From Antedon mediterranea (taxonomy: Eukaryota > Animalia > Echinodermata), in contig NC_092672.1 of assembly GCF_964355755.1 (NCBI RefSeq), positions 7,874,001 through 7,938,000 on the forward strand: DNA of 64,000 bases, in the 5' to 3' direction. The notes beneath the pieces were generated by a model, which was given only the letters and a program-made list of their open reading frames with translations, was not told the DNA's origin and ran no database searches. Numbering within the stretch: position 1 is the first letter of the stretch; each line of letters starts with the position of its first letter. The translations under genes were made by a program, and so were the position numbers. Shown one piece after another: positions 1,566 to 62,687 of the stretch.

Positions 1566-4500
1566 ATGGATGGTAAATATATCCTTTTTTATGTTTCCTT
1601 CTAATCTATAAACTAATAGTTCAACCAATAAATAAAAAGCCAGCTTTGGTTGGCCTTAGTATGTAATAGGCTGATCAGTCTACAAATAAACAAATAGGCC
1701 TACATGTCTTCTTCGAAGAAAAAACACTTTTGGGACCAGGTTTCTGGTGGTTCCTTCTGTTTTTTGGTATCGACTGTTCAGCTTGTGTATTATTATTAAT
1801 ATTATTATCAATACAATGACATGGTGAACATAAGAGAAAAAAGATCTGGACAATTGAAGACGTGAGCACTATTACCACGGGTCAGCAAGCATGTTCACAA
1901 GTCAGATAAAATTAACCATGACTCTCTGGCATGGAAACAGATAAAGTTCTATAGGATACATTAAAAAACAAACTGCAAATGTCAAACAATACTGAAACGA
2001 ATGTAGAATATCATCCGGGTGATGGAATGCCATGTACTTGAGGGCACTATTAGTAATTTTACCAAAAAAAACGGGAGACTTGTATTAATTTAATATCGTC
2101 AGAACTCAACATGTATCCTATGTATATCAAATATTTTTCTACGTAGTTTATTCTAGTGAAACAAGTACATTTTGGTTTTAAACGAAATAAATTCGTAAAT
2201 AAAATCATAAATAATATCGTAAATACTGCTTATATAATTAATAACGTAATAAAGTCTATACAATACGGTACTGCAATCAGACGTAACTAGTTTGACTAAA
2301 TCTAAACCCAAACCAAAACAGGTAAAAAAGAAAAAAATAATTAAATTGAAGTATAGACAATGCGCGTATTTTGGGAAAACGTAAAAGCTCCTCCAAATTG
2401 ACGTATTTTGGAAAGTTTGCCTCTAAACTTATTTTTCCATCCTTCTGCACTTTTCTTTAATAGTTTAATTTTGTTCTTTAGTTGTAAGTGCGTGTGTGTG
2501 TGTGTGTGCAGAATAAAAAAATAAAACAAACCAGAGCTATATATATGGCTCTGAAACAAACAAACAAATAGCGCTCTCAAGTTCACCAACCCTAATATAT
2601 TGTTGTTCTTTCATTCTCAGAAATTACGTTCAATTTAATAAAGTTATCTGTGGCAGATTATTATGACGATAATCATTGCCTCGTTATGCTGAAGGTATTA
2701 TTCAAAGATGACATCGACCATCATGAGCTTTCCAACATTGCCGATACAATGAGCTTACTTAATGCGTTATATAACAAAGGAGTGTTGAGGTGCAACGATC
2801 TTACATTCCTTTATAACACCATCAGACTAACTGGACACTTCGCTCTACAAGATAAGATTAAGGCAACTTGGACATCATTCCCGAATGTCAGAGAAATAGC
2901 CGTAACTGAGTTTACAGAACACCGACAGAAGCTGATGCGATTTGGACAACAGGTGATTCAGACAGACGTGAGGAGGATTGACGGATTATACAACACGCCG
3001 ACGAAGAACTACAAGAACAGTTGGGAAATGATACACCATTTGGAAGACAGGAATGACATTAAAGAAGATATGACAGAATTTATTGCTAGATTGAAACAAC
3101 TTGATCTTCCTAAAGCGGTAGATGCACTTGAAAAGCCAATACAAGGTACAATTTTGTCCATCAGCCTATAATGCATTCGTTTCTTTAGCCGTGCATTATG
3201 GCTTATAGAATGAACAAATAAAAACATAGCCTACATTAAAATAGAAAAAATAATCTCTTTATTAATTTAGTTTTACACCTAGACCAAAAGTACCGTCAAA
3301 GAATATTATATATATTCTTTGGTACTGTGGTAATGCAATACCAGTTTAAACTGGTTATTTGATATTTTTAATACAGCCGATTATCGTATGATGTCCTAGC
3401 TTAAAAGAGAAATATATTTAATAGGATTAGGAGACGTTATAAAACAGCCCATGTAGCCTACACGATGTCAGCATAGGGTGCAGCATGGCAGGTATAAGTA
3501 CAATACTGAGTACTGAAATGAACCGATATTAAAACAATTCAAACCTCTTAATGCATATTCATGAGTGTAGTTAATTATGCATATTAAATATTATTTCTAT
3601 TAATATAGCTGATTGGCATGAATGAACGAATTCCGTTTCAAATGTGGCCTGAATAACCACAATTAAGAAGTATGCTAATTTTGTATTACATTGTTCTCTG
3701 TCCTAACCCGTGTTATTTGTTTCTGTTGTTTGCTATTACCATGTATAAGTGTATTTTTAAAGTATTTATGTCTGAATCTGGTCAGCCGTTCTCAAGCTTT
3801 TGATTTCCGGGATTTAACCTTTCCTAATTTGATGTAGGCCTAAATACAACTTTTTATTGATTATATTATTTAATAAACGTTAAATTGATTTTAAATGATA
3901 TTATCTTATAGGTCCTGGCGCCGCTGTGGCGCCCGATGTTATCCCAGCTACACCAACCACCGGTTAGTTGATGGTGTATATTTGCTATAGGCCTACATAA
4001 GTTCAGTTCAGTTTTATATATTTTATTTGTGATATGAGCCTATTCTTTTATATTCCTAACAATCAAAATATAATAATATAAGTTGCTTTGGATATATTAT
4101 GTAATCATGGTATTCCGAAATAAAAAATCGAATGAAATAGTTATAAATATAATTATAAAATGTATTAATACACCATTTTATTTTGTAAATTACAATTTAC
4201 AGTTGAAAGAGAATTCTAAGTCTACATAAACAAACGAATTATGAAAATAGGTGATAAAATCGGCCTAAACTCAATTGATAGTTGAGCATCTTCAGATGTG
4301 TCCTTAACAAATCGTTTTTCATCATTATTAGAATTGGATGAAGAAGATTTCAATGAACTGATCACTGAAGTATCTGATTGGTGGAGGGATCATGGAAACA
4401 TTCACATGCTAAGAGTGTTACTAAGCGAGTTCACAACTCGTGCCAAAATTACTTTGCACAAGATAGAAAGGATAAACACAACTTTTGATCTACTTGACCT

Positions 4501-4897
4501 ACTTCAGGCTTCTGGACTTCTCAAACCGACAGACATAGATATCCTCGTTGAGGCTACTAATTTATGCGGACTTCAGGGAGTTCAGGAAGCGATTGCGAAA
4601 ATTGTGAAATCACCAAACTTTGACGTTCCATACAAAAACTTCTCAGACCATCGAAGAAAATTAATAGCGTTGGGTCAACAAATGAATACAGACAACATGA
4701 TAACTATATGCCACCTGAAGGGCATTAAGGTCAACGATGACACAGATCCGTTTTGGTTAATCTTAAAATTGGAAATGAAAGGCACACTTGATGAAGGAGA
4801 GAAGATGAACAAGTTCATCAAACTACTTGAAGGTAAAAAGATGAATAGAGAAGTAGAGGCATTAAGGAAACTAAGTGGTGAACCAACAGTTTCATAA
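1566..4897 (+). CDS. Death-fold protein with four DED-like domains (two tandem pairs), no catalytic domain; about 382 aa
   Basis: Phase-consistent GT-AG exons: 1566-1572 (ATG GAT G; exon starts 1520), 2621-3145, 3912-3962 (Pro/Ala linker GPGAAVAPDVIPATPTT), 4332-4897 (stop). Probable non-coding exon ends at the donor at 1240. The two large exons align with each other (FNLIKLSVADYY..MLKVLF / FNELITEVSDWW..MLRVLL; FTEHRQKLMRFGQQ / FSDHRRKLIALGQQ) and show the helical DED hydrophobic pattern (LLnaL..kGvL...DL.fL). Domain call is by eye. Confidence 0.7.
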
Positions 4898-37213: not shown

Positions 37214-40200
37214 TTATTTTTTCTTTTCAATTCTTTTTACTGAATCATCAAACTCTTTGTCAATGACATTCAGCATGAGGCTGCCAGCATTCAAGTATAC
37301 ACGATTCTGAGAAGCTGCAACCTGTGGAAACAGTATTAAATATTACAGTATTAGTAATCATTGAAGAGAGTGTGTATGTTTGTCGGGAATAGAAATGTTA
37401 CTGCTGCACACATCCATACAAACACACACACACAGGGTATCGTAATGACCAAAATTGTACTTGGAAGGTTGTAAATTACATTTGAACTACCCATAGGAGG
37501 TGGTTTGGGCTGGTAATTACACTTGTAAGCTATTAATACAATACAACTCCTCCCTCCAGGGAATACCCACCATTTAAGGGACACTTTCCTTTGAAACCAA
37601 CAATATAGTATTTATATTAAAAGGACACTTCCCTTTGAAACCAACAAGGGGATTTTTTTCATTTCTTTATTCGAATTCATAAAATAACACAACATAAAAA
37701 AAAAAAATACAAAGAATGAATTCAGGGTAACACAAAAAAGTAACCAAAGGTCAAACTTATTTCCATTGTGGCCCTTAGTGAAATATATTATTCTTAAATA
37801 CTACGACAAAGTTTTAGCAGAAGACACCATCTTTAAAAAGACACTATTCTGTAAACTAACGAGGGGACAAATAATATGTTTTTAACACCATTTAGTATTC
37901 AGCTTCTCATAAATTACAGTTTTTCCCAAACAAATCCCAAAAAAAACTTACAGTTCTTGCAATATTTTGAGCAGCACGGATCTTCCTCAGCTTCAAGTAT
38001 CCAGGGTTTTGAGAAATGGCCTCTCCCAGGTACAAATCAATGTTAAGGTTAACAAAAGAAATTACAGAATAGATATGTACTCAAAACAATGGGAAGCTCT
38101 AAAAAGACTATGATCATAGTGCTTATTAGTCACATTCATTTAGACTAGACAAAAAGTAGTTAGCCCTCTAGCGGTCATTTGTGATTTCTGAGATTCATCG
38201 AAGCGCGACAACATCACCGGAAATGATGTGAATTTAAAATTTTTATAGGGTTAAACTCTTTTAACCAATTGAAAGCCTTAATTTATAGTTCCTTATGAAT
38301 AATTCATGAGAATAATTAAAGCAAGGGTTGAAGAAGCATGTGACTTGGTTTTTGGAACAGGATAGCAGTTATGATTGTGTAAGGTAATCATTGAATTTGC
38401 TCTTCTTTTTGTTAGATTTTATACGGTTTTTATCAATAATAATATTGTACATTTTTACGAGACCATAAAAAAATTCCTCAATTTTTGAGTAAACGAGTGA
38501 CTAAATAAAAAGTTACTATGTAATGTAATTATTCGTTTGACAAAAAATGGGCATGTTGATATTTTCAGGTATTTTTTAAATGGCGATTGAAATAGGTAAA
38601 CAAATCACATGTATGACAGTGGTTTGTGCGAAGCTGGGCCTAGCCTTGATGGTCCAACGCGTACTGCGTGTTAATCAATGCGTATAGATATAAACGTAGT
38701 CGTTTAGGCCAATTTTTTACATGTTTATTTATTAATATTAGGCCCCATTCTCATTTATTTTAATTAATGTACTGAATGTACCACACTTTACAATTCTATA
38801 TAAATTAGATTTTGTACTTGTATTAAATTCAAACGTTTTATGGGATTTAAAACATTAAGCTAGGCCTAGTAGTAGGCCTAAGACCACAGGCTAGGTTTTT
38901 CAGCCCATCTTTCAAATACATATTTAAATTAACATACTTTTTATATTTCTATATTTTGTATAGGATCTGACTCCAGAAAACATTTGCATCACTTGAAAGC
39001 GGCTATTTATGGACAGCATGTTGACATTCAAGAAAATTTGACCAGCTCTTATTAATTAAATGTCTTTTAAATTAAAGGTTTTCATTATAAAGAAATGTAC
39101 GGTGACAGAAATTTAAATGATTCTCATAATTGAGGTTCTCATAGATATATTGAAGGTAAATAAATAAAGGTGTTTGTTATTCTTGCCTTTAGAAATAAAC
39201 ATGTTGTTAGTACTATATTATTAGGCCTAGGCCATGGCCATTATACAAATTAAAACTAACAAAATACAGTAATCATATTTAAGGCCTACGCAGCAGTACC
39301 TTATTTGATTTTATTTTTTTCAAATATTTAATTGATGAACTAAATGAGTTTGACTTTTCAATTAGTTGCCATTTTATTATTAGTTTCTGAGTGTTTTTAT
39401 TTATATTCTTAAAATAATTGTATACAACAACTTTAAAGTATTGCGAAGAAGTGATCAAATTATAGTATTTGTATTTTATTGTCGCTTAAAATTATGGAGT
39501 TAAAGTATTTTATTTTAGGGCGACAGAAACGGTTAGGCAAGAAAAGAAATAAATTTGGGAATTTTTTTATGCGGTAAAAACAATTAAACATAATCTACCC
39601 CTAATGCATGTAAATGTAGAAAACATTGCTTATGTTAGCGCGACCGAAACTCGCTACTGGGAATAGAGCCTGCAAAAGCGACGCGTGCACACCTACTCGG
39701 GCACCAGCGGAGCGCGATCGATAGTAAATATACCCGACTTCAAATGATCATAAAATTCTTTTAAAAAATATCAACATTTTGATTTTTTGAGGATTAAAAG
39801 TAAAGATATTGAAATTTAACATAATATTTACAAATATGTATTTAAAAATTCGGAAACAATTTTAGCGTGATATTAAAACTAACGTTTTAGAGTTCCGCGA
39901 TTTCCTACGCAGGATTTGTTTGTTTTCATTGTTAATGGGCGAATGTTACCTAAACTAGAATCGTTATAAATCTTTTAAATTTGTATTATAAGTAATTTCT
40001 TTAGTATTCTTAGTAACATCGAATGTCTCAAATTAACTAGCAGTTATTTATACTAACTATTGTTCAATAATAAGCGTGTATGAAGTGAAAATCTATAGTA
40101 ATAATGTTCTTAGTCAGTTCGTCTCGCTCGCGTGAAGTCTTCGGGTTTCTCAATAAAATTCTCAGCGGTTTGATAGGCTCGCGCTAATGTTTAAATCAAA

Positions 40201-43200
40201 AGCGCTCTCAAAACACTTTTTGTCCAAAATTCCCAATATGACGTGGGTGTGTAGTTTTGTCATATCAGACACTGGTTTGATATACCATCAGATTACCAAA
40301 GATAGGAGCACATATCTCCAACAGCTACCAGGTTCACCACCTTAACTTAGTTCCAACCCTTAACCACCCTCACCCGACCCTATTGTCTGACCATCAAGAT
40401 CCAGGCTAGCCACATCTTTGGCTTACCCTCTGTGCTTAAGGTCATGTTTTGTGTCGGTCTGATTTTACAGCAGGTGTACAGACTTCACCAAACACCCACC
40501 AAGATTACAGAGCGCTCCCTAAACTAAACTCTGGTTTCTCGTGGGAGTTCTAGGCTAGGTGGCTTGTGAACCGATGTCTATTGAAACTTCACTACATGAT
40601 ATTCATCATATGGTCATATCACCAGAAAACAACACTTGGTTGGGGTGTGGGGAGGGGGAGTGGTGGTGGCGAAAGTTTTCAAAAATGGATTAGAAAGGAT
40701 ATCATGATTGCTGACTCTGCCTCTCCCTCAGCCTGAACCACTTTTTGTTGTCTTTCTTGTTTTGCTTTCTCCACCAAAAATTGCGCCCTCTGGGCTTCTT
40801 GCTGTGCAACTTGCTTAGACTCCACAGCAGCAGTGTATTCTCTGCCAAAACTTAGCTCAGTGATTGAAACATCATCAAGAATAATGTTAAAGTCCTTAGC
40901 TCTGCTTGTTAATTGACGTCTGATCAGTAAACTAACCTGGAAAAAAAAACATTTACTAATGTATTTGCATCACTTTAGTTAATTTGAAATTTAGTCTTGT
41001 GGACCTAATGCTCTCTATGGTAATTGTTATACATTAGTGAGTGGCCGAGCTGTGGAACCGTAATTACATAGCCATAACATCGACAAGGGTTCGAGGCTCA
41101 CTCGTTCCATGGTTCTGGTGGTAGAACGAGTATTCTCAGCTAAGGCCTATAAATCGTAGGTCCAGTGTAGACATCTAGCTAGTGTGCACTTTAAAGAATT
41201 TAGTACATCTTTCGACAAGTAGGGTGTTACAACGATGTACACACACAGTCACAGGTGTTTACCACCTGTTGGTCCCATCCTTCACTAATGAAGATCTTAG
41301 AAATTGAATAAATAAAATATACAAATCAAGAGGTTTCCATCACAATACATTTGATTTCTTGTACCACAAAACCAGTTAAAAATAGTACATAACTTGAAAA
41401 AGAAATGATTTGTGTAAAACATAACAAGAGAAGTACTAGGTGTTCGTTTAAACTTACAAACTTTGTAATATGACAATTAGAGATTTTCCACAGTTCACAA
41501 TGATATTATCTAGTTTATTATGAAAAAAAATGAAAAGAACCAATTACCTGTTGACGTTGTGTGATCAACTGGGAGGCATTGAACTTTGCAACGACACCCT
41601 TTAAAACCTATATAAAAAATAGATATTATTGCATTGATAAATATATAATGAAACTAAAGCTTTGTCTACACTATCAAACTTTATGACGTGACAAAAAAAT
41701 GTGATGTGCCCACATATTACTACCATATTTGGGCACATCACACTTTTTTTGTCTATATAGATAGTTGATATTGTGGACACAGCTTAAGTGATTCTAATTG
41801 TTAACACATTAGCTTCAAAAAAGTGTTCAAACTAAATCCTTGCTATGTTTTCATTACAAACAGCCATAATAATTAGGGATGGATGCTATCATGTCCATAT
41901 ATAGGCACATCACACCTTTTTGTCCCATAAAGTTTGATAGTGTAGACAAGGCTTTAAAAATGAGTCTTCTTTTGTTTAGACTTTCCCCACCCTCCCTTTT
42001 AAGTTTTCTTTCAATAAAACTCCACACCACATTTTCAGCAGCTCAGTCTACTTAATAAAGAATTACCTCATTACATATGGATGGCAGTACACGTTCATCA
42101 TAGTCAGTGCCAAGTTGCTGGTACATCTGTGGAAGCGTGTTGTTTACTGGTCTTGACAATACACGCAGAGAAATGTTGACCATCTGCAAATCTAAAAATA
42201 ATGGCAACAGTTAAATCAAGCAGTCAAAACATAATTATTTGCTTGCAAGCCCAATCGATACCAGTACTAATATTGGGCGGGACTTATGTCAACACGGAAT
42301 TGTGTCAACACAAGTGTTGCGAGCAACTGAGCGCTTCCTCAGTTGCCATAAACATTCCAAGTGCGCAACTAATTTTAGTAGAAGTTTTAGAACAAATAAA
42401 CGGTTTCCTCTCTTTCCTGAGCTACAGTACGTGTACAGTATTTTTTCCTTCTGTATATCCATTCATCATACACAATCATAAACATAGTACAAAGACTGGA
42501 AAGGGGAATCTTGGAAGCATAGCTTATAAGTAGATACCCCCTGTTACAAAAACAATAATTAAAATATAAAACTAGAAATAAATAATTTAACTTAAAGGAA
42601 AATGCAAACCATCACAATCATTTTTTCCCAATGAATCTTGTATTCCTGTTAGTGTAAAACATACCTTTGCTCCCTGTGGGTGAGGACAGCTTTCTTGGTC
42701 TAGATCTTATGTCATATATGATTGGGTATTGAAACCAAGGTATCCTAAAATGTAGGCCTTCAGAATAAATATCATCCTTGATGCCACCAAGACGACTGAA
42801 AATAATTGCTCTATGACCACCATCAACTGAAATGGAAACATACAACATACAGTTTGTGCATTTAATCTCAGGCTTCTAATTCTATGTTAAAATACAACTT
42901 TTTTTTTTATTTGAAAACAAAGGAAATAAGAATAACAAAAATATTTACACTCTAGGCCTACCAATTAATAAGTATATTAATATTATATGTCAAGTAATAA
43001 TAGTTTATAGCTTTTATTTAAGTAGGCCTATGTAAAATAAAGACACATTAAGAATAAAGATTAATAATGTTTTTTGGTCACAACTCAAGAATTTGTCTAG
43101 GCCTAGGTTAGTTTGTTTAGGGAAGGCTACAATATACTGTTCTGTTCAGACACCATCAAAGTTGCTTCAATTCAACACTAATTACGATCAGCAACTTAGC

Positions 43201-54200: not shown

Positions 54201-57200
54201 ACTTTATTCATAGAAACAGGTTGCTATAATAAAAGGTATTATTATAATTATTAGCAAAACGAATAACAAAGTACTGTAATATATTGGTTTAAAGTTACAA
54301 AAATGTGATTATAATTATCCTTTAATATAAGAGATCCTTTATTGTATAATGGCTACTACTATTTTGTTTAATTAATACAAAGCTTATGTTTTACCACTGT
54401 AGTGATATAATGCATACCGTGAATTTTGATCTCTCCTGCCTTCTATAGGTATCCAACACAGTCACAACACAACTGTGAGCCAAATTACCTCAAATGAGAA
54501 TGGTATCGACCAACCAAACTGTAACCTATATCCAACCATTAGTCATTAATAACTTTAAAAACTAATTTTTTATCAAGAGGCAGTTTCAACTTTAGAGGGC
54601 ACACTTTACAAAGTCAATATGTCTGGGACAAAACAGCTAGAATATGAGATTATGTCGAAACAGCCGGTACCTGCACTATAAGAATAATAGTAATATTGTG
54701 GATACATAATATGATTGAGTGATATTTTTTTTACTGAATCAAAAATCCTACAACCGTAAATTTCTACAATCTATGAAATAATGGTTAGTATTTTATAACA
54801 TTTGTTTATTTTATTTAAGGAAATGAATTATCACCGTATGTATACATCGATCTTTTGGATATGTATTATGTTAAGCAAGTAAAAATTATCAATAGACAAG
54901 GTTGTAAGTATAGTCATTCTTTTAGAATTTTGTGTACAGTACTTGAAAGAGTACACTGGTTTGGTTTTCATAAAGTTTGTATGGCTTCTATACAGAGACG
55001 CAGCACAAGGACGAGACGCAACGGACGGCAAGTTGACCAATGACAAGTGACAGTTTGAATAATCAATTGCTTGTGATTGATCAAATTACTTGATTTGCAT
55101 TTGCGTACTTGCGTTAAACTCTGTCTACACTGTCAAACTTTATGTGACAAAAAGTGTGATGTGCCCATGGACATGATGACGTCATATCACTTCCATATCT
55201 GGGCATATCAATACCATATTTGGACACATCATACTTTTTTGTCGAATTGATTGGTGTAGACAGAGCTTTACGCCATATAGTGGAAACTAACATTGAAAAG
55301 TCTGCCACAACCGTAACAACGCAGCATAAAAAGATACTCTTCTATCAATTCCGTACAGTACAAATGTTAATGTATTTCAAAGCTCTTTCAGTGATTACGC
55401 CCTCTTTTTGGTTTAAAAATAATAAGTGAATTTATTACGCGAAATGCACATAAACTGACGCTTTCTTTTCCAAAATAAATTGGACTTGTGGAAGGTTACT
55501 TTTTCTAGCTCATGGTATTATTAATATAAGAACATAATTATATCGAGTGTTTCTGATGATGTTTTGAACAGGTTGTCAAGATCGGGTGACAGGCGGCATT
55601 GTTAGAATAGGTGCATCAGTGGATAACATATTCGCAAATGTAGCTTGTGGAGAACCTATAGCTGCAGGTGAAATTTCAAATTCAGCAGACATTTACAGAG
55701 ATTGCGAACTGACCGAATTAGTTCGATATGTCAGCTTGTCTTTAGACGGTATTCGAGAGTATATAAACATTGCTGAAATAGAGGTTTATACTAATGGTAT
55801 GTATATTTAGTATTGATAAAACAAAGTCGGTTGTACACTGGAAATTATTATCAATAAAATGTTTATAGTTCTTTTTTATTCAATCTAATCGAATCATCGC
55901 CACTAACAGGCTAGCTACAATAAAAAACTACCGATAAAAAATATAATTCTTTAAAACAGACATACAATGTAGAACATCGAACATAGAGACAAGAGTGGTA
56001 ATAAAGGGAAAAATGTAATGCCATTAAAAAAAAATATCGATATTGGTCTTATTTCCTTATAAGCTGGGTTCCCACTAGCGACGCAACGTAACGCAATCTA
56101 CGCAACGTAAGAAAATTCCCTTTCAACAATTGTGTTTGCCCCCGCCTGCATGAAATCAAACCTGTGATATTTGCAGCACTGTTGCGTCGGCGGTTCTCAC
56201 TTGTGATTACGCAATACAGCACTTTGCGTCAATATGCCGTTGCGTTGCGTTGCGCGGGGCAAACACAATTATTGGAAGGGCATTTCCTTACGTTGCGTAG
56301 GTTGCGTTACGTTGCGTACTAGTGGGAAGACTCGTTACGTTGATACTACGTATCATCGTCCTATATAGTATAAACTAGCCTTTTAAATGTAATGTGATTG
56401 CTGAATACGGCAACTGAATTCTTTTTTTTTTCTTAGCGCAAGTATTAAGAACTTATAACAATCACTGCTATGAATATTCCCTTGTTGCTGCAACATGGAG
56501 TGAAGCAAAATTAGATTGTGAGAGTCGATCTTCAACGCTCGTTACAATAAACACTGAAGACGAGCTTACCCATTTGATGTCGTCATTCAGCTCAACTACA
56601 TGCACGTGGACAGGTCTTAATGACATCACAACTGAAGGAGAACCTGATTGGTTGACTCATGATACTACGGTGTATTCCAACTACAGCAATGCTAACAACG
56701 ATGCAAATGACTGTTTTTCTATGACTACTGATGACACTCTATTACGTAATGAAGATTGCAATACTGAATTAGTTTATATTTGTGAAGGTGAGTAGTTCAC
56801 ACTGCGTTGCATTAAACGCCCCTCATTTCCACCCACCCCACCCCAACTACCCCATTAAATAACCAGATCTAATTTGAATATCTTTCTGAATTAACGTATA
56901 AGTTTAATAAACATTTAATTCGAAAACATGTTCGTACAACAAAGTAAATCACATGACGTGCGTATACAAAATTAAAGCTTGGTTTCCACTTGGACGCAAC
57001 GCAACGACGTAGGTGCAACGCAAGTGAGTTAACCAATCACAAGCGACAGATACTCAATTAAAAATAACAATGAGCTGCATGTAGTTTTAAATTTACACCC
57101 AAAAAAATAAACTCTCTCGAACAAGGGCCCCCTAAAAACCTTATAAATACGGTTAAAAAAATAGAGCATAACTATTTTTTAAATGAAATAAAATACAGTA

Positions 57201-57503
57201 AATTTTCAATTATTATCAACCTGCATTTTATATCTTGCAGCAAGGGGCAACAGCTATAAAACCTATGAGATTGGCACAAGAGACAAAATCCCGACTGATG
57301 AGTTCGTATTAAAGCGTATGCTAGCTATCAGCCCAGGCCTATGCTCACTGGGATGTACTACATTGGATGCTTGTACTTCGTTTTCATTTAATTTCATGAC
57401 AAATGAGTGTAAACTTAGTAATAGTACAGGTCAGGACAACCAACTTACAGATGAACAATTCGCTAATTTATACATAATAAATTCGTCTGGTTTAACTTGT
57501 TAA
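49784..57503 (+). CDS. Mosaic lectin-like protein: F-type lectin (fucolectin) domain + C-type lectin domain + PAN/apple domain; 5' start exon not identified
   Basis: In-phase GT-AG exons 49784-49800 (micro-exon, conserved in the paralogue), 51141-51245, 54820-54903, 55572-55796, 56437-56787, 57241-57503 (stop). F-type: IGRNKPAVRSS..VNDGN..FVHT..VYIDLL..VKIINRQGCCQDR..RYVSL..INIAEIEVY. C-type: HCYEY..TWSEAKLDC..LVTINTEDE..WTGLND..C..C..YICE. PAN: CSLGCTTLDACTSFSFN..CKL. Confidence 0.85.
49899..50644. mobile_element. Nested and adjacent cluster of PIF/Harbinger family A MITEs
   Basis: At least four AGC(T/G)TGGTTCCCAC starts. Insert 49916-50094 has TAA TSDs and is absent from the paralogous site near 62840. 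Two more copies at 50268-50644 are also absent there. Confidence 0.85.
51287..53647. mobile_element. Ginger-like (TGT..ACA) palindromic non-autonomous element with 5-bp TSD
   Basis: TGTTACAACCG ... CGGTTGTAACA ends; TSD AGCCT at 51282-51286 and 53648-53652. Arms made of CAGCTTATGTAG and GACCACCTCTC subrepeats meet near 53063. Superfamily is inferred from termini only. Confidence 0.75.
51577..52597. mobile_element. hAT-like element with 5-bp TSD nested in the left arm of the palindromic element
   Basis: TIR CAGGCCCGTAGCCAGG / CCTGGCTACGGCCCTG; TSD TATCA. The right arm of the host (about 53350-53380) shows the empty site TAGC-TATCA-GTC. Confidence 0.8.
55117..55267. mobile_element. PIF/Harbinger MITE family B nested in a decayed family A MITE
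   Basis: AACTCTGTCTACAC ... GTGTAGACAGAGCT with TTA TSD. Confidence 0.75.
56062..56330. mobile_element. PIF/Harbinger family A MITE (rearranged)
   Basis: AGCTGGGTTCCCACTAG ... CTAGTGGGAA ends with family A internal sequence. Confidence 0.7.
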
Positions 57504-59040: not shown

Positions 59041-59983
59041 ATCCTTATCACCCATCTTCCCTGATAACATTTGATCTAGTCAATATTTTTTTCAATTTAG
59101 ATTCAGTATAAACGCTATGTACATTTTATTGGTATATAAGATTGTTTGAATTAAAGAACTCCCTATTTTAAGAAAAAAAGCTTGCAAGAGAGCTATGTGC
59201 TACTTGTTTTTGCTGACCCGGATTTCCTTTTTATAAAAAACACCCATTTATATATGGGTTTCAATTAGACAACGCAGTAATGGCGTATAATCGTTTTCTA
59301 TATATTTTGTTATTAAATAATTTAGTAAAATGATGATACAGTTTGTTTAGGCGATAAACATTTTGGCAGATGTTTCCTCTATAACAGCTACGTGTTTTTG
59401 CTGACCGGAAATTTCCCTTTTATATAAAAAAAAAACACGCATTTAGGCCTATAATTGTCAAATAGAAAACGCAAAAATAACGTATAATCGTTTTCCATTT
59501 ATTTTTTGATTTAAATAATTCATTGATCATAAACACGTTTTTTTAAGGCAATTACACTTGTTCATAAAAAAAAATAGATCACAGCAATTCATTTGAAACG
59601 GTCTTTTTCTGCCTTAACATGTGGTTATATACTTTGCATGGGCAAGTATAATAAAAACGCACTCTGATAAAAGTACTTTGACAAATTATTATAATAAAAA
59701 CAAATTGTATCAAGAATAAAATTCGGAACTACTGCCATTGATTTGTTATACACTATCCCTTCTCTTTAAAATTTATATGTAGGCTAAAAAATTAAAGCAA
59801 TAGTGGATATGGAACTTTAGACTTTACTTTTGACTTTTCAGACTTTACGTGTGAATTAGATTTGCGCGCAAATACATAACGAAAGTATAAAATGCCTAAT
59901 ATTTTGAGTGTTTTTCGTGGTGTATTAATTATTTGATACATTAAACATAAAATAAAAAAGTGGACACAAATCTGGTGTAACGC

Positions 59984-61225
59984 AAATGATTAGAGGCTTT
60001 GGGGCCGAAACGACCTCAACCTATTCTCAAACTTTAAATTGGTAAGAAGTCCGACTCGCTCGATTGGAGCCGGGCGACAAATGAGAGTGCTCAGTGGGCC
60101 ACTTTTGGTAAGCAGGACTGGCGCTGCGGGATGAACCGAACGCCGGGTTACGGCGCCCAATTGGGACGCTCATTAGATCCCAGAAAAGGTGTTGGTTGAT
60201 ACAGACAACAGGACGGTGGCCATGGAAGTTGGAATCCGCTAAGGAGTGTGTAACAACTCACCTGCTGAATCAACTAGCCCTGAAAATGGATAGTAAATAT
60301 TCAAGTGAGACCTTTGAGGGCCGAGTGTGGAGAAGGGTCCCATGTGAACAGCCGTTGCACATGGGTCAGGCGATCCTAAGAGGGTAGTTCCGTTCCGAGC
60401 GGTGGCGTAGGCCGCGCCTCTCGTGGGTCTCGTTAGGCGAAATGGAATCGGGTCAATATTCCCGAACCTGAAGACGGAGGTCGCTGCCTCACGCAGCCAG
60501 TGCTCCAAAGCAAACAAACTCGGAGACGCTGGCGGGAGCTCCGGGAAGAGTTGTCTTGTTTGATAGGGGCTGCGGGCCCGTAAAGCACCGCGGCTCTTGC
60601 GGTATCCGGTGCGCTTCCGCTGGCCCTTGAAAATCCGAGGGACACCGACTGATTTTCGCCTCGGCTCGTACCCATAACCGCAGCTGGTCTCCAATGTGAA
60701 TAGCCCCTGGCCGATAGAACAATGTAGGTAAGGGAAGTCGGCAAATTAGATCCGTAACTTCGGGAAAAGGGTTGGCTATAAAGCGTGGTTCCCTCTAGAA
60801 CGCAACGCAACGTAACGCAGCGACGTATCAACGCAAAGTGCTGTATTGCGTAATCACAAGTGGGAACCGACGACGAAATAGTGCTGCAAACATCGTAGGT
60901 TTGATTTCACGCAGGCGGGGCAAACACAATGTTTAGAAGGGAATTTGCTTACGTTGCGTAGATTGCGTTACGTTGCATCGCTAGTGGGAACCAAGCTTAA
61001 GGTCTGGGTCGGTCGGCCCGGAGAGTGAAGCGGGACCGGGCGCGTGCCGTGAGTGAGCGAGGCCTGCGCAAGCAGGGCGAGCCCGGACTAGTGCCGGCCC
61101 CATTTCGTGGACCTTCCTGGCTTGGCGGCCTTTCGGGATCGCTTTGGCCGACGCCAAACAGCCAACTTAGAACTGGTACGGACACGGGGAATCCAACTGT
61201 CTAATTAAAACAAAGCATTGCGATG
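59984..61225 (+). pseudogene. Decayed internal fragment of 28S (LSU) rRNA
   Basis: Conserved LSU blocks ACCTCAACCTATTCTCAAACTTTAAAT, CAGTGGGCCACTTTTGGTAAGCAG, GGAATCCGCTAAGGAGTGTGTAACAACTCACC, GTAAGGGAAGTCGGCAAATTAGATCCGTAACTTCGGG, TGTCTAATTAAAACAAAGCATTGCGA. It has internal deletions, substitutions in normally invariant positions and a MITE insertion, and no flanking rDNA. Confidence 0.92.
60782..60997. mobile_element. PIF/Harbinger family A MITE inserted in the 28S fragment
   Basis: TAA TSD at 60779-60781 and 60998-61000; removing it restores TTGGCT.TAAGG.CTGGGTCGG of 28S. Confidence 0.9.
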
Positions 61226-62687
61226 CGAACTATTTACGGTCATTGATTTTTGTTACTTTGAAATATCTGTAAGCTATACAAAATGAAAGCAATATGGGAC
61301 TTTCTGCTGTATGAATATTAATATTATGTTTTTGTTCATTTACATTTTTTTTTTTTTTTGGCGGCCCGGCATGGTATTTGTAGATCCGACCATGGTGGTA
61401 CAACATAGGAGGTTGTGTAGTTTATACAGTGACGTAACATGGTCGCTGAGACGTCAAATTACTGCTTTTTTGCCTTTTAAGAGTTTTTTCTTAAAATTTA
61501 GAAAAGTGACATAGCCTATCGTGTGCAGCGCCTCAATAAACATCAGTGTGCCAAATGTGGGCACATACCGTTCTGTGGTTTTGGAGGAGATACGTAAAAT
61601 ACGCGAAAAATTTAGTACATAAAACATAAATCTCTTTATTCATCTCATAAAACAAACAAAAGCAAGCAAGGAGTAAAAAATATTTTTAAAGATAAAAGGG
61701 ACCTCCAAGAAACCCCAAGGGACTTGTGATAGGAGGCCCACTAAAAACTAGTTACATTAATTAAGCTACTGTAAAAAAAAAAAAATACATAAATTGACGA
61801 ATAGACCATTAATATTATATCAGGGGACGCGCATTGTTAGGGAATAAAATTGCCAGGAATCGAAAACCAAATACCAGATGAGGTTTGAAACACTCAGAAG
61901 CAGAAAGGTTAAATGAACCCACATAGGCCTAAATACTGTACATTACATTATACATACACATTAAAATGTTTAAGCATTAATAGATATATAGCCTACAATT
62001 ACAATATATTTATTGAAAAAATGAATTTAAATAATTAAGAATTCGATATCAAGAATCGCTTAAAAAATATTCCCACAGTTTTTCCAATAATATACAAGTA
62101 GTGAATGTTTATGAGTGCAATGGTACAAATAATTTCATGAGGCGAAAGATGATGCGATGATTGAACATTCATCATCACTCCTGAACAGTTTCTATAAACT
62201 AACAGTTGATTTCAACCATTCAAAGAGAAACCCCACAGAATGCAACGTACTTTAAAAAGGGTAAATATTCGATTTTTCAATTTCGGTTTTGAATCGTTGC
62301 TAAGTGACTTATTAAGCAACGCATAATCATCATGTTATATATTTTGTTCTGTGTATTTTATTTATGATTTAGGCCTATTCGATTTTAATGGCAATCAATT
62401 TTATCTTGATTGATCGATATTAGAATGTATATTATTTGAATTGAAAATAGAACACCAAACTAGTTTTGTAATGCCAAGGTTAATTAAACATATTGTTAAT
62501 TGTGGATTTTGTTCTGTATGTGTATTATTTATAGCTTATTCGAGTTTAATAGCAATCGATCTCATCACGATTAATCGATATTATTACTGTATATATTAGA
62601 AGTAAGAAAAGAACACCAAACTAGTTTTGTTATGCCACGGTTAAACATGTTTCTAACGTTTTCTATAAGTGTTTGGATTTTGTTCAG

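Follow-up and report, generated by a model that had tools for sequence, protein, structure and literature searches.

The window analysed here, 64,000 nucleotides of Antedon mediterranea DNA, carries on its minus strand an exon of PHB2 followed by a U12-type AT-AC intron, and within the intron lies a predicted composite C/D-H/ACA scaRNA of the U85 type (Table 1). A contig from sequencing run X8 joins the upstream exon to the next exon at exactly this intron site. U5 snRNA is common to both spliceosomes, and here an RNA that targets U5 sits in a minor-spliceosome (U12-type AT-AC) PHB2 intron (38030-40702). No second U85 copy was found within the 64-kb window. One gene in the neighbourhood resembles a cluster made up mostly of echinoderm members, a weak pointer to an echinoderm source. 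Elsewhere the window holds two ORFs resembling death-effector domains (2596-3168 and 4286-4894, the second by Atlas), exons that by eye resemble C-type lectin and PAN domains (56418-57500) and a degenerate, rearranged 28S rDNA remnant (59879-61325); a search of this remnant for the complement of the conserved core described below found none.

Table 1. Features at the PHB2 scaRNA locus, in window coordinates.
Feature	Position	Strand	Length	Details
PHB2 exon 5' of the scaRNA	40703..40936	minus		top match Prohibitin-2 chain 8rrh_B, E 5e-35; Band_7
PHB2 host intron, U12-type AT-AC	38030..40702	minus		5' ATATCCTTT, branch CCTTAAC, 3' AC
Composite C/D-H/ACA scaRNA gene, U85-type, predicted	40283..40614	minus	332 nt	Rfam RF01296, whole model, 41.2 bits, E 2.4e-7
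Box C	40603..40609	minus		sequence; Rfam alignment
CUCCC, 5' arm of the stem around the element	40543..40547	minus		predicted; P 0.54-0.86 under H/ACA constraint
Element complementary to U5 nt 3-15	40528..40540	minus	13 nt	scaRNA nt 75-87
Conserved core CCAGAGUU	40527..40534	minus	8 nt	scaRNA nt 81-88; complementary to U5 nt 2-9; first letter C/U in lineage
GGGAG, 3' arm of the stem	40515..40519	minus		predicted
H/ACA hairpin 1 with U5 Psi46 pocket	40455..40514	minus		pocket 5' strand 40507-40501, 3' strand 40468-40463
H box (ANANNA)	40449..40454	minus		14 nt past start of 3' pocket strand; sequence
Probable ACA box, 3' of hairpin 2	40384..40386	minus		fold; inferred
U5 Cm45 guide (40303-40293) and box D (40291-40288)	40288..40303	minus		same letters as Rfam U85 consensus

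U85 is a textbook double guide. The Rfam score of the scaRNA is a marginal pass, as the gathering score of the snoU85 model is 41 bits. By sequence and alignment, the fifth base of the guide next to box D falls on U5 C45 and the U46 pocket lies 14-15 nt from the H box (U5 positions are numbered on the type L024 sequence), which identifies the RNA as a U85 carrying predicted Cm45 and Psi46 guides.

The first-pass annotation had drawn attention to a 13-nt stretch upstream of hairpin 1 as the exact complement of U5 nt 3-15. The window reads ACTCTGGTTTCTC there (40528-40540) and nowhere else, and the minus strand of this stretch is nt 75-87 of the scaRNA. The 5' ends of human and fly U5 carry the same 13-mer. 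As stand-ins for Antedon U5, we used a panel of animal U5 genes found as contamination in public genome bins (23 loci on 7 contigs, falling into 7 sequence types), with one locus per type confirmed by Rfam. Several of the bacterial genome bins (L002-L024) contain animal U5 genes, and CBDAPN010000007.1 is mostly a 436-nt tandem U5 array, which points to host contamination. The complement was exact for two of the seven U5 types (L014/L015 and L024), and the remaining five matched the 13-mer at 9-10 of 13 positions, so the description was borne out for the former and not for the latter. Dinucleotide shuffling of the scaRNA produced a perfect complement to U5 L024 of at least 13 nt in only 7 of 20,000 cases, which agrees with an earlier estimate that a chance match has a probability below 1 in 1000.

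The element does not behave as a guide of either canonical class, as had been proposed from the first. A C/D methylation guide requires 10-21 nt of antisense followed directly by a D or D' box; no box of the NUGA type follows the element in the window RNA or in three homologues described below (L025, L052 and L039), where the D' candidates lie 11-15 nt past box C. The only D' candidate of the window RNA within 30 nt of box C is at nt 23. We considered the CAGA of the element as a D' box and rejected it, as better candidates lie near box C and the letters upstream of CAGA are unconserved. Nor is the element an H/ACA pocket: it is one contiguous stretch outside both hairpins rather than a bipartite antisense placed in an internal loop at 14-15 nt from an H or ACA box.

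Homologues were collected from metagenome contigs with a pattern consisting of the Cm45 guide and box D only, which left the sample blind to the element. All 48 loci obtained were screened by script and 39 of them by Rfam, the other nine being near-duplicates of scanned loci or truncated. Ten were U85, representing five sequence types (Rfam bits in parentheses): L025/L061 (84), L052/L053/L060 (68), L039 (82), L054/L062/L064 (46) and L035 (24). L035 falls under the Rfam cut-off yet has the boxes, the pocket and a D' guide. Types L025 and L052 resemble each other closely (global identity 0.87 with cheap gaps, at which unrelated pairs reach about 0.6), so that the five types amount to four lineages. 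The flanking exon of L052 is a different one, PDS5-like by a weak Pfam match (E 0.056).

An 8-nt core, CCAGAGUU, was present in 6 of the 10 U85 loci, that is in three of the five types (L025, L052 and L039) and two of the four lineages. It lies 7 nt before the lower stem of the Psi46 hairpin in all three types and 15 nt before it in the window, and it is the only 8-mer common to these four RNAs outside box C, the pocket and the D guide. When the junction regions of three lineages were shuffled, any common 8-mer arose in 2 and any common 7-mer in 45 of 20,000 trials. The core was not found in the L054 and L035 types or at the same position of the Rfam consensus, and was absent from all 147 non-U85 control loci. 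Among the controls taken from viral contigs, which gave no U5, the pocket pattern gave 1 locus without an Rfam U85 match and the D-guide pattern gave 120 loci, with no U85 features where 300 nt of upstream sequence was present. One human U85 probe has CCAG at its end, in a roughly comparable place, which we treat as a lead only (PMC4041459). The lower-stem pairs of hairpin 1 were kept in 16 of 16 cells over the four sequences compared. Immediately upstream of the core, L025 has AGUAAU and L039 has GGUAAU; each matches the end of that RNA's own Cm45 guide, down to the A/G difference, which may be chance.

Conservation thus applies to a shorter unit than the one proposed: the full 13-mer, whose 5' six letters are unconserved in distant U85 copies, is not kept, whereas the 8-nt core is kept in three of the five U85 types. 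As judged from these alignments, the feature is real but its conserved core is shorter than 13 nt, and the core is kept at the foot of the Psi46 hairpin in copies whose surroundings cannot be aligned. By this comparison the core is under selection in distant U85 copies.

Closer relatives gave a different picture of the 13-mer. Two runs, X1 (organism A) and X5 (organism B), gave contigs that cover the scaRNA, and the contigs of X8 and X13 covered the exon only. Both X1 and X5 differ from the window at 40488, 40512 and 40534. The last of these changes a C of the element to U, with which U5 G9 could still pair as G-U; the computed duplex with U5 is -22.4 kcal/mol with the C of the window and -19.8 kcal/mol with the U of the relatives. 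The perfect 13-mer is therefore not fixed in this lineage. C to U is, however, the commonest kind of mutation. One of the 3 differences in 154 nt between the window and organism B lies inside the element, so at this range it is not better kept than its surroundings. At 40512, the letter of the relatives restores a pair in the Psi46 guide hairpin that the window letter breaks in favour of a misfold, and the canonical hairpin costs 5.5 kcal/mol with the window letters versus 0.7 kcal/mol with those of the relatives. By these computed folds the guide hairpin of the window looks weaker than that of its relatives, and the window copy may be a weakened allele or a paralogue. Sequencing depth was doubled over the scaRNA (window 40284-40614) and not over the exon, with differing flanks or loose ends, which suggests that organism B, and perhaps organism A, has another U85 locus. 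This suggested second locus of organism B is identical to the first over 154 nt including the element; the X1 contigs are collapsed, and allele and paralogue are indistinguishable in them.

The same letters bear on how the element is displayed. It had been described as lying in the loop of a CUCCC/GGGAG stem. In a free fold of the window letters this stem had a probability of about 0 and the element paired with the Psi46 hairpin instead, but once the canonical H/ACA hairpin was enforced the stem reached 0.54-0.86. With the three letters of the relatives substituted, and no constraint, the stem probability was about 0.8 and that of the guide hairpin 0.93-0.98. Even with the stem formed, the element is only partly single-stranded, as a weak 4-bp mini-hairpin forms within it, and in the predicted folds it is about half accessible or less (mean unpaired probability 0.25-0.49). 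Loop display is therefore predicted for the constrained window RNA and for the relatives' letters, not for the free fold of the window letters, and then in part.

Pairing with U5 was examined for the core as well as for the 13-mer. The core can pair at 8 of 8 positions (Watson-Crick or with one G-U) with four of the seven U5 types; a fifth type allows pairing at 7 of 8, and types L013 and L020 mismatch it twice. In L025 and L052, pairing runs on to 9-11 pairs when the U5 partner is one of the two types with the 13-mer. A perfect 7-nt complement to U5 is contained in only 1.2% of all 8-mers. Conserved complementarity to the RNA's own substrate, a property of accessory guides, was thus found with the stand-in U5 sequences. 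In the Rfam structure of U5, nt 3-6 belong to a terminal stem of 4 bp, followed by a bulge (nt 7-8) and by nt 9-19 in the next helix, so that the core would face the weak stem and the bulge. Opening U5 is computed to cost 2.8 kcal/mol for the core and 6.4 kcal/mol for the 13-mer. After both opening costs, the predicted net interaction of the window RNA with U5 L024 was -13.6 kcal/mol; for three relatives with four compatible U5 types it was -4.2 to -9.4 kcal/mol, and it was about 0 with the two mismatching types. The U85 and U5 sequences compared are unmatched by organism, and the single change of the core in close relatives, at 40534, is G-U-compatible.

The first-pass annotation had further suggested that the element invades U5 stem I to expose loop I for modification. 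The computed structures do not support this part: opening U5 nt 3-9 leaves the opening cost of nt 40-53 at 4.9 kcal/mol, and even the 13-mer lowers it only to 3.4 kcal/mol. We therefore rejected the core as a loop I opener; the unchanged cost suggests that the conserved part would tether U5 rather than unwind it. The more general proposal, that the scaRNA touches the U5 5' end at a third place apart from its guides, finds real support in the conserved core and the favourable predicted net energy, with the amendments that the conserved unit is 7-10 nt against U5 nt 2-11 and that the contact is not essential in general.

We consider it most likely, with a probability of about 0.6, that the 13-mer represents an 8-nt element conserved among invertebrate-type U85 scaRNAs, lengthened at this locus, and acts as an accessory antisense anchor on the 5' end of U5. 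On this sequence-based model, the element would pair with the first ten or so bases of U5 and anchor U5 on the particle, guiding no modification itself. It is predicted to displace the 3' strand of the weak 4-bp terminal stem of U5, with entry at the unpaired U7-G8 bulge. The part of loop I bound by the Psi46 pocket overlaps with that bound by the Cm45 guide, and in one Xenopus U85 copy a C45 that is already methylated can prevent Psi46 formation, as described in part of one study (PMC5733568). The two guides would thus compete for the same stretch, with C45 methylation hindering Psi46, and an anchor outside the contested stretch could keep U5 bound during transfer from guide to guide; it might thereby raise the efficiency of modification or set its order. 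In the same study, human and Xenopus U85 modified a U5 fragment of nt 37-57, which is without the 5' end, in yeast (PMC5733568), so a 5'-end contact is accessory at most and not essential; the anchor would be dispensable in some lineages. Against the anchor, the 13-mer came from a selection for long matches, and its extension beyond the core is possibly part luck.

The most serious alternative, which we regard as unlikely though well short of negligible, is that the core is a protein signal: a third, CAB-like site for WDR79/TCAB1 on a small hairpin with a CAGA loop, the U5 match being coincidental and lengthened by chance in the window. The fly C/D-type CAB consensus, cgaGUUAnUg, binds WDR79 by itself, according to one report (PMC4041459), and the element matches it at 5, 7, 5 and 6 of 9 positions in the four RNAs; in L025 and L039 no other CAB-like site matches better. 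Each RNA has three or four of the five invariant CAB positions, and only GUU is kept in all four. The Rfam/vertebrate U85 consensus places CAGAGUU, which has seven of the eight letters of the core, in the hairpin 1 apical loop, where vertebrate U85 has its CAB box. The letters allow a 4-bp mini-hairpin around CAGA in 14 of 16 cells, one of its pairs having changed on both sides, but it is broken in L039, its covariation is not above that of shuffles (75 of 500), and a complement of the U5 end would form it automatically because that end is itself a short inverted repeat. Candidate CAB boxes in true hairpin loops vary among the four RNAs whereas the core is invariant, and L025, L052 and L039 already carry UGAG in a hairpin loop. 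In sum, the element resembles CAB boxes (H/ACA ugAG; fly C/D cgaGUUAnUg) in its GAGUU and its hairpin-loop setting (compared with the CAB boxes in the available part of PMC4041459). It differs from them in lying outside the H/ACA terminal loops, where the H/ACA-type ugAG belongs, and in conserving a 5' CC in place of the 3' invariant positions. A CAB-like site here would be a new position for a Cajal-body signal. The two readings are compatible and not mutually exclusive. Ahead of the CAB-like site, we place the accessory U5 anchor as the most likely function.

That the core is instead an intramolecular folding element, a scaffold or switch that pairs either just 3' of the H box or with the hairpin 1 lower stem, seems improbable. 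L025 and L052 do have a 6-bp partner directly 3' of the H box, with a pairing probability of 0.6-0.8 for six positions of L052, and the window letters pair the core with the hairpin 1 lower stem. The four RNAs have no partner in common, however; its place and sequence differ and the core is invariant, the reverse of a covarying stem. The best partners are also weaker than the U5 duplex (-5.6 to -8.2 vs -10.7), and the pairing in the window hinges on one letter that is absent from the relatives and costs the guide hairpin 5.5 kcal/mol. Least probable of all is an absence of function, with a chance 13-mer in a window chosen from a very large scan for this match and a common core left over from descent and missing in two of four lineages and in vertebrates, since neighbouring letters cannot be aligned between lineages and yet eight are identical at the same place.

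A broader form of the anchor model is more tentative. U85 might ancestrally grip the capped 5' end of U5 by strand invasion through a conserved element and keep hold of it while loop I moves among two or three guides that exclude one another (Psi46, Cm45 and, for some lineages, Gm37). The third guide is suggested by a stretch at L039:213-228 and the matching stretch of L035 (minus strand), where AAGGCGAAU is followed by a NUGA D' box and forms 8 bp with U5 such that the fifth base falls on G37. The Rfam U85 consensus keeps AAGgC in the same register, and this stretch was not found in the window RNA. Human U5 Gm37 is listed without a guide in the table consulted (PMC7960923), and Xenopus U85 methylated one extra, unnamed position in the experiments described (PMC5733568). 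From sequence alone, the U85 D' guide may be the missing Gm37 guide. If the broader model is correct, a scaRNA would have a distal accessory guide, and the ordered modification of U5 loop I would gain a physical basis. The seven core letters that recur in the vertebrate hairpin 1 loop might then double as CAB box and U5 contact. How U85 sets two adjacent, interfering modifications is an open question, as presented in part of the U85 literature (PMC5733568), to which a third contact outside the contested stretch would offer a testable answer; assays on short U5 fragments would then capture the mechanism incompletely.

The host RNA is an ordinary U85, and the new part is probably the element before hairpin 1. 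In the portions of the literature searched, which include PMC5733568, PMC3884663, PMC4053861, PMC6984369 with its supplement, PMC4041459 and PMC7960923 and give partial coverage, a contact of U85 with the U5 5' end is not mentioned, and within that coverage its novelty is probable rather than established. Like U85/SCARNA10 (RF01296), the window RNA has in the same order box C, an H/ACA domain with the Psi46 pocket, the Cm45 guide and box D, but it carries CCAGAGUU 5' of hairpin 1, where the Rfam consensus is without the element, and it is hosted in PHB2. Human U89/SCARNA12 is located in PHB2 intron 6, according to the part of the source available (PMC12995542). The window RNA therefore shares with U89 its host gene, compared at the level of the gene, and the Psi46 target; it differs in having a Cm45 guide too, and Rfam calls it U85.

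The closest functional precedents are the accessory guides that raise methylation by yeast C/D snoRNAs on rRNA, such as snR13 and U18, in the sections of the study consulted (PMC5389607); extra pairing has also been suggested for some vertebrate SNORDs, in the passages seen of a second article (PMC8522698). An anchor in U85 would extend accessory pairing from rRNA-targeting C/D snoRNAs to scaRNAs and snRNA substrates. As in snR13 and U18, a conserved antisense without a catalytic box of its own would pair with the substrate and may aid modification by another guide (PMC5389607, in part). In the yeast U18 construct, as far as that source describes it, the accessory pairing adjoins the rRNA target and lies in the C'/D' region (PMC5389607); in contrast, the predicted site of the window RNA is about 30 nt from the target, on a capped snRNA end, and the element lies at the foot of an H/ACA hairpin.
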